From the IMG/VR virus record IMGVR_UViG_3300047375_000738: a DNA stretch of 64,000 bases. One strand, given 5' to 3'. Shown piece by piece: positions 13,821 through 40,381 of this stretch. The stretch comes from a virus (taxonomy: Duplodnaviria; Caudoviricetes). The notes beneath the pieces were generated by a model. That model searched no databases. It saw only the letters and a program-made list of their open reading frames with translations, and was not told the origin of the DNA. The position numbers were made by a program, and so were the translations under genes. Numbering within the stretch: position 1 is the first letter of the stretch; each line of letters starts with the position of its first letter.

Positions 13821-14138
13821 CTATAATTTTTTACCAACATTAGTAGCTTTCTTAGCCATTTTGCCTACTTTATCTTTGTCACGCTTTTTATCTTTAGGAT
13901 CTAAGTCATCAACTTCGCTTGTTTTTAATTCAAGTGTGTCTTGGGTAAAGTCTTTGATAATTTCGTTAACTCTAGCATCTGTATCATATGCTGCTTTTAG
14001 CATATCGTAACTAAACTGTGGAGCACCCATGTTTAACATGTACTCGTTAATTTCGTCCATTGTAATAGAGGTTTGGCCCTTGTCTTTCAACAGGGCCAAT
14101 ACTTGATAGAGCTTGTCAGTTCTGATAGCTTCAGTTAC
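13821..14138 (-). CDS. ORF in the -1 frame of the upstream gene; probable frameshift extension (VTEAIRTDKLYQVLALLKDKG...)
   Basis: No ATG/GTG or RBS before TTG 14099; frame stays open across the A9G run ending the upstream ORF. Confidence 0.55.
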   Translation of the reverse strand, partial: VTEAIRTDKLYQVLALLKDKGQTSITMDEINEYMLNMGAPQFSYDMLKAAYDTDARVNEIIKDFTQDTLELKTSEVDDLDPKDKKRDKDKVGKMAKKATNVGKKL

Positions 14139-14899
14139 TTTTTTTTTGAAAGTGTTTTTGCTAGTTTGCGTGGATCAACGCTTTCACGTTGTTCTCTTTC
14201 ATCTGGCATATCTTCGCCGCCTGCTGCTGGATCGGATGCTGCCATATCGTCCATGTCATCCATGTCCATATCGCCTGTGTCGCCCATGTCGTCAGTTGGT
14301 TCCATATCCATGTCCATGTCGTCCATGTCTGGATCAGCACCCATCATGTCATCTCCGCCTTCGCCTGTGATTTGGCCTACGCCTGATGTTAGTGCAACAC
14401 GAGTTGATTCCATTGCACCGTATAAACTGTCTAGTGCTGGCTTGATAGTGTTTGTAAATGTTTCGCTTGCTTCAGCACCCATTTCATCACGGATAGCATC
14501 TGCTAGTTCTAGCATGGACTCTGTTTGCATTTCCGCTGTGTCTTCCATCCAACCAGTTAAACGGTCAACCATTTCTTTAGCTGCCATTACTAGCTCTGCT
14601 TGATCTTCTGCACCTTCGTTGACTTGTGAGTCTTCTGGGATTTCAATATCGCCACGCTCACTAATCTCTGCATTCAATACATCTAACATTAGCTTTGATT
14701 TTTGATATGTTTCGTTGTGTACGTTATCAAAACTTTCGTTTGTTTCTACATTGAATACTTGTGTACGTAATTTATTACGAGCGTTTTGTAGTTGCTCTAG
14801 AGTAAACTTCTCTAGGTTAAGTTTAGCGCCGAAGCGTTTTGCTAGACTTTCATTAAGTGTCTTAGCTGTTACTGGTTTTGCAAATTCTGAAATAATCAT
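14135..14899 (-). CDS. Acidic prohead core/scaffold-like protein
   Basis: Coiled-coil N-terminus, D/M-rich low-complexity tail, LNE/TNE/VNE sites, TAAATA late promoter. Confidence 0.45.
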   Translation of the reverse strand: MIISEFAKPVTAKTLNESLAKRFGAKLNLEKFTLEQLQNARNKLRTQVFNVETNESFDNVHNETYQKSKLMLDVLNAEISERGDIEIPEDSQVNEGAEDQAELVMAAKEMVDRLTGWMEDTAEMQTESMLELADAIRDEMGAEASETFTNTIKPALDSLYGAMESTRVALTSGVGQITGEGGDDMMGADPDMDDMDMDMEPTDDMGDTGDMDMDDMDDMAASDPAAGGEDMPDEREQRESVDPRKLAKTLSKKK

Positions 14900-14935
14900 G
14901 GGTCCATCCTGATGTTTTATTAAAAGTATTTATCA

Positions 14936-15358
14936 CTAGTGTTTTAAAATGTATGATTCTAGATCTGTATTAATGCTTTCTAACTCTGATTTTGCTACTT
15001 CTAGCCTAATTTCTAGCATTAATTTTTTATTTTCGTCATTGGTTCTATCGATAATGTATGAATAGTGCATTGCATCGTTTAAATGTTTTGATGCATTGTG
15101 ATCCTTTTGTTGTAGTTGATCAATTCTATGTCCACCAAGACTAGCTTTAGCAATTGCTACTGCACCATGCTTGGTATCTGCTGTCGATACTGTAGCATTA
15201 TCCTCAGTGTCTACAATTATGTACCCATGCCTTGTACTACGACGAACAAGCATTTTACCAATACGTATTGTCTTGCCTTCTTTGTAAGGCAAAGTATATT
15301 GCGGAATAATTTTATCGACTAAACTTTGTAATGTATCTGCTGTGCTACGAGTGCTCAT
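14936..15358 (-). CDS. Hypothetical protein
   Basis: Start moved to MSTRSTAD; overlaps upstream stop region. Confidence 0.6.
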   Translation of the reverse strand: MSTRSTADTLQSLVDKIIPQYTLPYKEGKTIRIGKMLVRRSTRHGYIIVDTEDNATVSTADTKHGAVAIAKASLGGHRIDQLQQKDHNASKHLNDAMHYSYIIDRTNDENKKLMLEIRLEVAKSELESINTDLESYILKH

Positions 15359-15551
15359 GTCCAACAACCAATAAGGCTCCCTTGTAATTGACTTTAGAAA
15401 CTAGGCTTTTGCGAACCAGGTTGTCTAAGACAATCTGTTCACGTTCAGTAAAAAACTCAATATAACACGGTTTTTCTAACTTGTCAAGTAAAGACTTTTC
15501 TTCGTTAGTTGTGTATATTTCAAATCCTTTTACTAGTTCATTCAATTTCAT
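15345..15551 (-). CDS. Hypothetical protein (MKLNEL leader)
   Basis: 68 aa in coupled late operon. Confidence 0.6.
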   Translation of the reverse strand: MKLNELVKGFEIYTTNEEKSLLDKLEKPCYIEFFTEREQIVLDNLVRKSLVSKVNYKGALLVVGHEHS

Positions 15552-16111
15552 TGTTCAGCGGCCCTCTGTAAATCTGCACTTTTGTAAGTCATTTTCTTTG
15601 GTTCGCCTGGCTTGGCTTGCGGATCTTCAATTTCAACTTCGTCGCCTTGTGTGCGTGTTACTTTGAAGTTCTTCTTGCCGCCTGGAGTATTGGTTGGTAG
15701 TTTTATTGCTTTGCCTACCTTTAAAGCTGGATCGCCACCCATTGTTTTGGCGCCTTGTGCGGCACTTGCTGCACCTGGGTTGGTTGGTGCTTTGCCTGAT
15801 GTTGGAGCAGGCTTTGCTGTTGCTGGTTGAGTACCAACTTTAGCATTTGGATCGTTTGTAGGTGCTTCGTCGTCATCACCGGCTACTGCATTATATGCCC
15901 CTTTTGCCACATTGCCGACACCTTTAGCAACACCCTTTGCTGCTTTGTATGCACCCTTGGCTGCAAGTTTTCCAACACCTAGTGCTGCCTTGCCTGCAAG
16001 TTTTCCAACGCCGCCAACTGCGGCTCGAGCTACACCACCTGCAATTGCAGGAATAAGAGGAAGTATTTCATCCAACTGCTCTTCTTCTTTTATGAACTCG
16101 TGTGCTCTCAT
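15548..16111 (-). CDS. Putative internal head/ejection protein with Gly/Ala amphipathic segment
   Basis: MRAHEFIKEEEQLDE leader then ILPLIPAIAGGVARAAVGGVGKLAGK...; Pro/Ala linker. Confidence 0.5.
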   Translation of the reverse strand: MRAHEFIKEEEQLDEILPLIPAIAGGVARAAVGGVGKLAGKAALGVGKLAAKGAYKAAKGVAKGVGNVAKGAYNAVAGDDDEAPTNDPNAKVGTQPATAKPAPTSGKAPTNPGAASAAQGAKTMGGDPALKVGKAIKLPTNTPGGKKNFKVTRTQGDEVEIEDPQAKPGEPKKMTYKSADLQRAAEQ

Positions 16112-16413
16112 CTTTTACTCTTACGCCTTCTTTTTGGTTTGATACTAGTTTTGTTTAGATTGTAAACACGTTTGGTTGTTGGTCTTCTTACAGTTCTACT
16201 TCTATTGATTGCTTGTACACTGCTTTTACTTCTGCGTGTTCTTTTTAGACTAGTACTTTTCTTTTGCGAGGTTGGTGTTGAGCATGTTGCAGGTTTAGCT
16301 ACCACGCGACCTTTTTTAGGTCCGCTGGTACAACGATACTTGCGCTTAACGCCGCCTTTGCTATCTCTTGCCCATACTTGGGTGTAGCTTTCTATGATTT
16401 CTGCATATCTCAT
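16108..16413 (-). CDS. Basic putative internal head DNA-binding protein (paralog 1)
   Basis: QVWAR...RKYRCTSGPKKGRVVAK; K/R-rich. Confidence 0.5.
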   Translation of the reverse strand: MRYAEIIESYTQVWARDSKGGVKRKYRCTSGPKKGRVVAKPATCSTPTSQKKSTSLKRTRRSKSSVQAINRSRTVRRPTTKRVYNLNKTSIKPKRRRKSKR

Positions 16414-16703
16414 CGTTTGTTCAAAGTCTTTAGACGCTTGCTTGCTGGATTAACTCTTTTTGTTTTCTTTGCTTTACGAGCCATCTTAGAGCCCAGTCTG
16501 CGTTTAGTTTGTTTAAATCTAACACTAGCTTTAATATTCAAAGGTGCATAGCACTGCGACATTTTTGCAACTACACGGCCCTTGCGTCTTCCGGCAGTAC
16601 AACGATACTTTCGTACAGTTTTCTTTCCAGAACGAGCCCAGACTTGTTTTTCGTCTAGTTCTTCTGATTCAGATGGTGTTAGGGTAAACTCTCTAATAAA
16701 CAT
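16410..16703 (-). CDS. Basic putative internal head DNA-binding protein (paralog 2)
   Basis: QVWAR...RKYRCTAGRRKGRVVAK; TAAATA 4 nt before ATG. Confidence 0.5.
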   Translation of the reverse strand: MFIREFTLTPSESEELDEKQVWARSGKKTVRKYRCTAGRRKGRVVAKMSQCYAPLNIKASVRFKQTKRRLGSKMARKAKKTKRVNPASKRLKTLNKR

Positions 16704-39989: not shown

Positions 39990-40381
39990 GGTCGGTCACT
40001 AACGAAAAAAAAAAAATTTTGAGAGGTCGGTCGCTTAGTATATTATACAATTAATACAAGCACTTAGCTAGTAGTGGGGTTGCAAAATCACCACCGTGAA
40101 AGCATAAGTACTTCTCTATAAAAAACTGCGCAGCAAAATTTTTACCCTGCAGGACCCATTTCGGATATATAACTGTATGCACGGTGATAGAGGAAATCCT
40201 AAGATAGTTGTACTAATGATTGGTCTATGTGTGTTTCTACACTTTATACTAATACCCGTATGGATGTATCTTTTAGGACTATAACGTTCTCGACTATATC
40301 GAGCAACACGAAGTGAGTCAATAGACGACACGTAGTGCAGCGAAGTTATCGAGTATACGAGATATTCACTATAAATACTGT

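Follow-up and report, generated by a model that had tools for sequence, protein, structure and literature searches.

Does the stop codon that directly follows a run of nine adenines mark the end of a gene, or does the run mark a point where a part of the gene products passes into another frame? The question is raised by the minus strand of the window, i.e. the whole 64,000-nucleotide (nt) stretch of the virus record IMGVR_UViG_3300047375_000738 (IMG/VR; Duplodnaviria; Caudoviricetes) that was analysed. Here, an open reading frame (ORF; 14899..14135) encodes an acidic protein of 254 amino acids (aa) with a pI of 4.1 and the C-terminus LSKKK*, which we call P1. Its 3' end reads TCA AAA AAA AAG TAA, with the nine A's (A9) at 14147-14139, the G at 14138 and TAA at 14137-14135. 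Across this A9G run the -1 frame is open; it reads KKKVTEAIRTDKLYQVLALLKDKG... and extends 105 residues past KKK to a stop at 13823-13821 (the reading past the run is also given as KKKVTEAIRTDKLYQVL...). The first start codon in the frame of this extension, P2, is TTG 14099, located 13 codons past the run and without a Shine-Dalgarno sequence, and the first ATG follows 26 codons past the run. Re-reading the sequence thus confirmed what an initial annotation, made from the sequence alone, had reported, namely an acidic 254-aa ORF ending LSKKK* on A9G at 14138-14147 of the minus strand, a -1 frame open for about 105 aa, and a downstream ORF lacking a start or ribosome-binding site of its own before a weak TTG; among the relatives, too, no start is conserved. 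The elements in question are the following.

14135..14899, minus strand: P1, zero-frame ORF of 254 aa, 28.1 kDa, pI 4.1, ending SKKK* (alignment A2 of 38 relatives; structure model)
14138..14147, minus strand: predicted slip site A9G, with the heptamer A_AAA_AAG at 14144-14138 in phase with P1
14135..14137, minus strand: zero-frame TAA, abutting the slip site; among 114 relatives, 71 have the stop directly at the run
13821..14147, minus strand: P2, the -1 frame extension, KKK plus 105 aa, stop included; -1 homologue in 114 of 118 relatives

Based on the comparison with related sequences, the A-run is very probably a maintained frame switch that gives rise to a P1-P2 fusion. Most translation would end at TAA and yield P1, while a set minority would continue in the -1 frame and yield the predicted trans-frame product P1-P2 of 359 aa and 40.0 kDa. 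Lysine tRNAs on A_AAA_AAG would re-pair one base back, and this slip may be helped by the slowly decoded adjacent stop and, in many relatives, by a local hairpin; some transcripts probably also gain an additional A from RNA polymerase at the nine A's. No other A/T run in the window is exactly nine bases long. At 40005-40016 of the plus strand there is a run of twelve A's, the longest homopolymer and the sole A/T run of more than nine bases in the window.

The relatives carry the argument. Two scans of IMG/VR gave more than 530 related loci, 160 of which were taken, and after removal of identical copies 118 distinct P1-P2 sequences were left; these relatives are metagenome contigs from many separate data sets. 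Relative to P1, the frame of the P2 homologue is -1 in 114 of the 118, with one in three expected by chance, and all 114 have an A-run where the two frames overlap (A9G in 97, A10T in 7, A8G in 5, A6G in 4 and A9C in 1). At least eight A's are thus present in 110 of the 114 and A9 in 98, and A6 is restricted to a single clade of four. The overlap shrinks to 10 nt in some relatives, where nothing but the run is left of it, and in some the run stands 1-7 codons before the zero-frame stop, which is TAA or TAG. As position and identity of the stop vary, it is the run, not the stop, that is the conserved element. Among the relatives T-C-A9-G carries 1.6-2.0 bits per position, with 2 bits for the run itself, and the flanks carry 0.1-0.7 bits; the flanking sequence is saturated with changes while the A-run and the -1 arrangement are kept. 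AAG accounts for 30% of the Lys codons elsewhere in these genes and never interrupts the run, and in each of the 114 frameshift-type relatives an A_AAA_AAG, A_AAA_AAA or A_AAA_AAC is found in phase. Aligning homologues had been proposed in the initial annotation as a check for a conserved A-run with an out-of-frame ORF, and the outcome speaks strongly for a maintained -1 switch.

The junction is duplicated in a few relatives. In L069 (3732-3790) and L075 (1234-1290), and also in L077, the slip motif occurs in tandem, TCAAAAAAAAAGATCTAACTAAC and then TCAAAAAAAAAGATAGCTG; the second A9G is again in phase after a first shift, and a second slip would lead to a stop. At the junctions of L105, L108, L118 and L115 the A9G is followed, about eight codons on, by a second A_AAA_AAG or an A7G beside the zero-frame stop, both runs lying within the overlap of the two frames.

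Homopolymers are error-prone, so the frame break might be an artefact, i.e. a miscount of a true A10 within one ORF, or it might mark a recently inactivated, dead gene. We regard this as extremely improbable, as 114 distinct sequences, drawn from many separate metagenome data sets, share the break, the -1 relation is kept through run lengths of 6, 8, 9 and 10, and both halves are conserved at the protein level down to 30-50% identity. A single in-frame P1-P2 ORF, which would be expected from a miscount, does exist in one Logan contig (SRR33375163; L171:3001-4131), where 376 aa are encoded across an A11 run, CCA AAA AAA AAA ATA. This is one A more than in the A10T type of site and may be either a natural variant or a homopolymer error. 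According to the initial annotation, an in-frame fusion in relatives would speak against a frameshift; such a fusion was found, but it is rare, and we count it as supporting, since the 376-aa ORF shows, as far as can be read from the contig, that the predicted fusion would be a coherent protein.

Alternatively, no recoding might take place and P1 and P2 might be two ordinary genes, P2 being made from an internal start (TTG 14099 or a later ATG) or by re-initiation, and the run encoding nothing but a Lys tail. Gene callers indeed give P2 of the relatives as ORFs of 65-93 aa that begin at internal Met codons, P2 is separate and has its own start in phage PA5oct and in 4 of the 118 relatives, and many distant P2 relatives are free-standing, starting M-[RK]-[FIL]-x-E-[FIV]. 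However, conservation of the P2 protein (alignment A1) begins at the run, whereas the first possible start follows 8-40 codons later at a varying position, i.e. conserved P2 residues, namely V-x-E and then L-Y-x-V-L of the first helix, lie upstream of every candidate start. Moreover, a Lys tail would permit AAG, two ordinary genes would be expected in the -1 relation in one case out of three and not in 114 of 118, and the M-[RK]-x-x-E leader of the free-standing relatives would be missing from P2 of the window. The four relatives without A-run (L120, L131 and L136/L139) are instructive in this respect: their P1 ends SSKK, SKPSK or SKTSK, and their P2 has an ATG of its own and the leader MKVSE, MKVFE or MKIFE. 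Among the 118 relatives it holds without exception that those with the run have no start and those without the run have one. An independent start, which the initial annotation had held against a frameshift, hence does occur, but only where the A-run is missing, and this supports a frame switch. Two ordinary genes are thus a very unlikely explanation.

Near relatives in the protein collection include neither a fused nor a full-length standalone P2, and no fused form was present among longer proteins sharing words with P2; an exhaustive P2 profile search later gave one. This search yielded 515 representative clusters, mostly truncated gene calls, and in a few of the distant P2 relatives the domain is N-terminal in longer proteins. 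P0073 (771 aa), P0049 (463 aa) and P0028 (261 aa) carry a P2-type domain with an M-x-x-x-E leader as N-terminal module.

If the frame switch is real, which machinery slips? On balance, we would give ribosomes rather than polymerase the larger share of the slipping, and ribosomal slippage on A_AAA_AAG is favoured by several features of the aligned sites, namely the conserved G, the phase, the A6G clade, the adjacent stop and the local RNA structure. A G directly 3' of the run is found in 106 of the 114 relatives, whatever the -1 codon (GTA, GTC, GCT, GGC, GAT or GAA). In the A8G and A6G variants A_AAA_AAG is still in phase, the A6G clade reading GGA AAA AAG, and the remaining variants are A_AAA_AAA and A_AAA_AAC. 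The same set, A_AAA_AAG, A_AAA_AAA and A_AAA_AAC, dominates the frameshift sites of IS1 and IS3 elements (PMC4066793). Where the junction codon encodes Val it is GTA (62), GTC (14) or GTG (1) and never GTT, although GTT makes up 45% of Val codons elsewhere; by this avoidance a zero-frame stop is kept at or next to the site. Stop codons beside slippery runs reportedly promote slippage, an effect ascribed to Weiss et al. in 1987. Additionally, the 45 nt past the run fold better than shuffled sequences family-wide (mean z -1.34, 31% below -2), whereas ten other windows in the same loci have a mean z of about -0.2, with 6% below -2.

Several observations weigh against a frame switch of this kind. 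In the window itself significant structure is missing at the usual distance past the site, the 45 nt that follow folding with -4.6 kcal/mol (z +0.6), and no Shine-Dalgarno-like element is found upstream of the site. The weak CTGA/TCAG hairpin that the initial annotation had placed after the stop exists, but it is insignificant, and with a z of +0.6 for the 45-nt fold it was rejected as a conserved stimulator. Downstream hairpins are clade-specific, and one stem is shared within a clade with a single compensatory change. The only strong hairpin, at 14073-14099 of the minus strand (UUGGCCCUGUUGAAAGACAAGGGCCAA), 39 nt past the slip site, lies in a 70-nt region with z -2.7 and recurs in a few close relatives; it was rejected as a conserved element, as RNAalifold gave no consensus and the pair counts did not exceed those of shuffled or slid controls. 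Furthermore, exactly nine A's are kept in 97 of the 114 relatives, one of the nine being the third, synonymous position of the Ser codon before the Lys codons. As a ribosomal slip needs only the last six A's and the G, keeping nine is the signature of the 9A class of transcriptional slippage. Finally, this lineage shows an about fourfold depletion of A/T runs of at least eight, which a polymerase that slips on them would lead one to expect.

The last two points suit another explanation, in which the frame switch is real but host RNA polymerase, directed by a phage late sigma factor, stutters on A9 and adds one A. We consider this possible, if rather doubtful. The three A's outside the heptamer, the maintenance of at least eight A's in nearly all relatives and the absence from the run of AAG, a common Lys codon elsewhere, are all in line with it. 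In the window and the 118 related loci (600 kb) the ratio of counts for successive A/T run lengths is 0.33-0.40 up to seven and drops to 0.08-0.09 from seven to eight, which suggests selection against slippage-prone runs. Such depletion has been described as a signature of polymerases that slip on these runs, with nine as a common threshold (Baranov et al. 2005, PMC1088944), and 9A IS elements and Thermus thermophilus dnaX use transcriptional slippage (PMC1088944). In a complete relative genome of 357.6 kb A9 runs number only three, nothing in the window stands out as a convincing stimulator of ribosomal slippage, and A_AAA_AAA, the heptamer of the A10T variants, is less shift-prone than A_AAA_AAG for E. 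coli ribosomes (PMC5009743) and would be better suited to polymerase. On the other hand, slippage of polymerase should be low in the clade that has A6G only, in exact ribosomal phase, as runs of six are not depleted, and it leaves the conserved G, the codon phase, the avoidance of GTT and the excess of downstream RNA structure unexplained. Besides, another A9 of the complete relative sits inside an ordinary long ORF and is thus tolerated in a gene. The two A9 runs outside the P1-P2 site of this genome are located at G006:C1:333061-333069 (L177) and G006:C1:60850-60858 (L176). One of the two lies inside an ORF of about 440 codons, where the other frames close within 1-13 codons and a slip would truncate the product, and the second is near the N-terminus of an ORF; both were rejected as frame switches since they are inside ordinary ORFs. 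Ribosomal slippage is still the mechanism we prefer for most of the events, and polymerase may contribute alongside ribosomes.

What might P1 and P2 do? Further elements of the locus bear on this question.

14927..14934, minus strand: T4-type late-promoter core (GATAAATA), 28 nt upstream of the P1 start codon
14907..14910, minus strand: AGGA, Shine-Dalgarno-like, 7 nt before the P1 ATG (read from the sequence)
14360..14638, minus strand: P1 central helical hairpin, residues 88-180, conserved; predicted self-association surface (hhalign, dimer prediction)
14204..14359, minus strand: P1 disordered Asp/Met/Glu-rich region, residues 181-232, length varying among relatives (predicted local confidence, pLDDT, below 50 at 187-231; alignment A2)
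14130..14138, minus strand: V-T-E at the junction, with the pattern [VIL]-x-E of T4 gp21-type cleavage and Ala as the next residue; Glu invariant in alignment A1
13923..14120, minus strand: P2 winged-helix-like core, residues 10-75 (model pLDDT about 86; weak-to-moderate structural matches)
13833..13871, minus strand: P2 C-terminal tail V-x-x-M-A-K-x-A-T-x-x-G, conserved; M97, A98 and A101 invariant in alignment A1

P1 is modelled as an all-helical protein in which residues 92-178 form a long helical hairpin and an Asp/Met-rich stretch is disordered (pLDDT below 50 at 187-231), and ATAAATA is present within 90 nt upstream of its start in 117 of the 118 distinct relatives. Leads to phages PA5oct, Atu_ph07 and Phosso came only from a search at a permissive threshold (E up to 5) with residues 1-185 of P1. 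In the profile comparison that followed, the central domain of P1 matched PA5oct gp247 (hhalign 95.5%, E 1.5e-8) and Atu_ph07 gp044 (hhalign 95.7%). These two proteins and PA5oct gp246 are annotated as virion structural proteins, the PA5oct record carrying notes on electrospray ionisation tandem mass spectrometry (ESI-MS/MS). PHROGs gave one match for P1, phrog_14154 'virion structural protein', with E 2.9e-17, Pfam gave none for P1 or P2, profile searches of PDB sequences gave nothing meaningful, and blastn and tblastn with the region and both proteins against a collection of cultured phages gave nothing at E <=1e-3. P1 probably self-associates, as judged from a dimer prediction that passes narrowly (score 0.43; best of three controls 0.00), a mark that was reached by 20 of 30 proteins solved as same-chain pairs and 1 of 23 solved as single chains. 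The dimer runs agreed in at least 47% of contacts with a pLDDT of at least 64 for the partner, and the interface comprises residues 99-177.

P2 has the model topology H-E-H-H-H-E-E with a core pLDDT of about 86, and its top structural matches are all winged-helix domains, but with Z of only 5-6.5 and Foldseek E of 0.2-1, so that there is weak to moderate indication from the model that P2 is a winged-helix-like domain. A protein-atlas search with P2 returned unnamed viral clusters only, and P2 has no similarity to Atu_ph07 gp044.

The initial annotation had pointed to a VTE-A site at the junction resembling other putative sites of a prohead protease. The motif holds family-wide: [VIL]-x-E is found within 16 residues of the run in 113 of the 114 relatives, the next residue being mostly A, G, N, T or S, and in P1 the Glu of [LIV]-x-E recurs at residues 5, 17, 81 and 95 in 37-38 of 38 sequences. 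The prohead protease of T4 cuts after L/I-X-E, and internal proteins of T4 carry an N-terminal targeting sequence that is cleaved (PMC9026906). A complete relative with the same P1-P2 site (L162) encodes a gp21-type protease (PF03420, E 8.5e-27) beside a gp23-type capsid gene; a search for the prohead protease in five partial contigs gave no match, the controls being likewise silent.

Based on these features we propose that P1 may be a core or internal head protein, that the fusion would co-assemble with P1 so that P2 enters the prohead at a fixed ratio, and that a T4-type prohead protease would cut after the conserved V-x-E and free P2. This head-loading role, which rests on motif conservation and homology to virion proteins of other phages, is put forward tentatively. 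Against it stands that fusion is not obligatory, as free-standing P2 in relatives shows. The role is further weakened by the location of the genes, as in the complete relative protease and capsid genes lie at about 110 kb and P1-P2 at about 347 kb, i.e. about 235 kb outside the head module. Thus, P1 is not the main scaffold. Of the scaffold-like head protein that the initial annotation had seen in P1, the virion-associated homologues, the helical fold and the predicted self-association stand, whereas a role as main scaffold does not. T4 genes 67, 68, 21 and 22 lie in the head-morphogenesis module, which the P1-P2 locus does not. The genes for internal proteins of T4 are likewise scattered. The T4 internal proteins have no sequence homology to P1 or P2, but the [LIV]-x-E motif is one that they share with P1 and with free-standing relatives of P2, at the N-terminus in both cases, and with the junction, a gp21-type protease is present in the lineage, and the fusion to P1 stands where the leader stands in relatives.

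This leads to a more specific speculation, which we hold with some reserve: the frameshift could be a cargo-loading device that is able to replace a capsid-targeting leader. In this marine lineage P2 would have given up both the start codon and the M-[RK]-x-x-E leader that it once had. P2 would then enter the prohead only as a minority fusion to P1, following the Gag-Pol logic of retroviruses, and would subsequently be cut at V-x-E, and relatives would switch between an own leader with a start and an A-run without a start.

The window belongs to an uncultured marine phage of the giant T4-like kind, and other genes in it encode ribonucleotide reductase, a PD-(D/E)XK exonuclease, DnaB, primase, helicases and a tail-fibre-like protein. 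The nearest counterparts of the exonuclease are those of RaK2-like giant phages and T4-like cyanophages, and related contigs, of up to 357.6 kb, are rated complete. Upstream of P1, small late genes with M-x-x-x-E-type leaders are located at 14936-16703 of the minus strand; they match in position a row of small proteins in PA5oct (L088, PA5oct 152989-161294) that are listed as virion components by mass spectrometry. PA5oct shares the gene order, i.e. small structural proteins, gp247, gp246, gp245, exonuclease and ribonucleotide reductase. Its gp247 is followed by gp246, which with 104 aa has the same position and size as P2, both proteins being listed as virion components by ESI-MS/MS. In PA5oct, however, there is no A-run; gp247 and gp246 share one frame with a single TAA between them, and gp246 has an AGGA and a GTG start of its own and the leader VKIKDILVE. 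On its own, the similarity of gp246 to P2 is weak (hhalign E 0.02).

Several known systems resemble the P1-P2 site. In E. coli dnaX (tau/gamma) the identical heptamer is found in the same phase, and through it a single gene gives rise to two products whose ratio is set (PMC5009743). There, however, the shift truncates the product and is driven by two stimulators, a Shine-Dalgarno-like element before the site and a strong hairpin after it, whereas in P1-P2 it would extend the product by 105 residues, and nine A's and an abutting stop are found and no single stimulator is conserved. T. thermophilus dnaX and the 9A IS elements likewise have a conserved A9 in the overlap of two ORFs with the layout kept, the criterion of Baranov et al. 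2005 (PMC1088944); in P1-P2 the 3' G, the phase and the adjacent stop are conserved as well, and one clade has A6G. The orfA-orfB pair of IS1 and IS3 likewise gives a short product and a trans-frame fusion and has the same spectrum of motifs with A_AAA_AAG as the commonest (PMC4066793), but P1-P2 is a late phage virion gene with neither a transposase nor an IS context. Among phages, the lambda tail chaperone G/GT, T7/T3 10A/10B and the major head protein of Lactobacillus phage A2 also rely on a -1 shift, located close to where a late gene for a structural protein ends, that produces a minor, longer form in a fixed ratio (PMC5009743; PMC10885494). P1-P2 differs from these genes in that it belongs to another family, whose product in T4-like giant phages is a putative virion protein of internal or core type, and in that the extension is a domain in its own right, without a start, which other phages encode as a free-standing gene.

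In the light of these comparisons between sequences, the P1-P2 site is a strongly conserved recoding site of classical type, and in the literature searched we found no description of recoding in this gene family. Gene callers miss the site throughout, and databases hold P2 only as truncated hypothetical proteins of 65-93 aa. As the family spans more than 500 IMG/VR contigs of abundant uncultured giant T4-like aquatic phages, a broad correction of annotation follows. The site bears the marks of both ribosomal and polymerase slippage and is thus a good case for measuring the contribution of each. Moreover, the relatives constitute a natural experiment in which a leader-bearing free gene stands against a start-less domain reached via an A-run, and the contrast between the two solutions makes the dosing of small proteins into the heads of giant phages testable.

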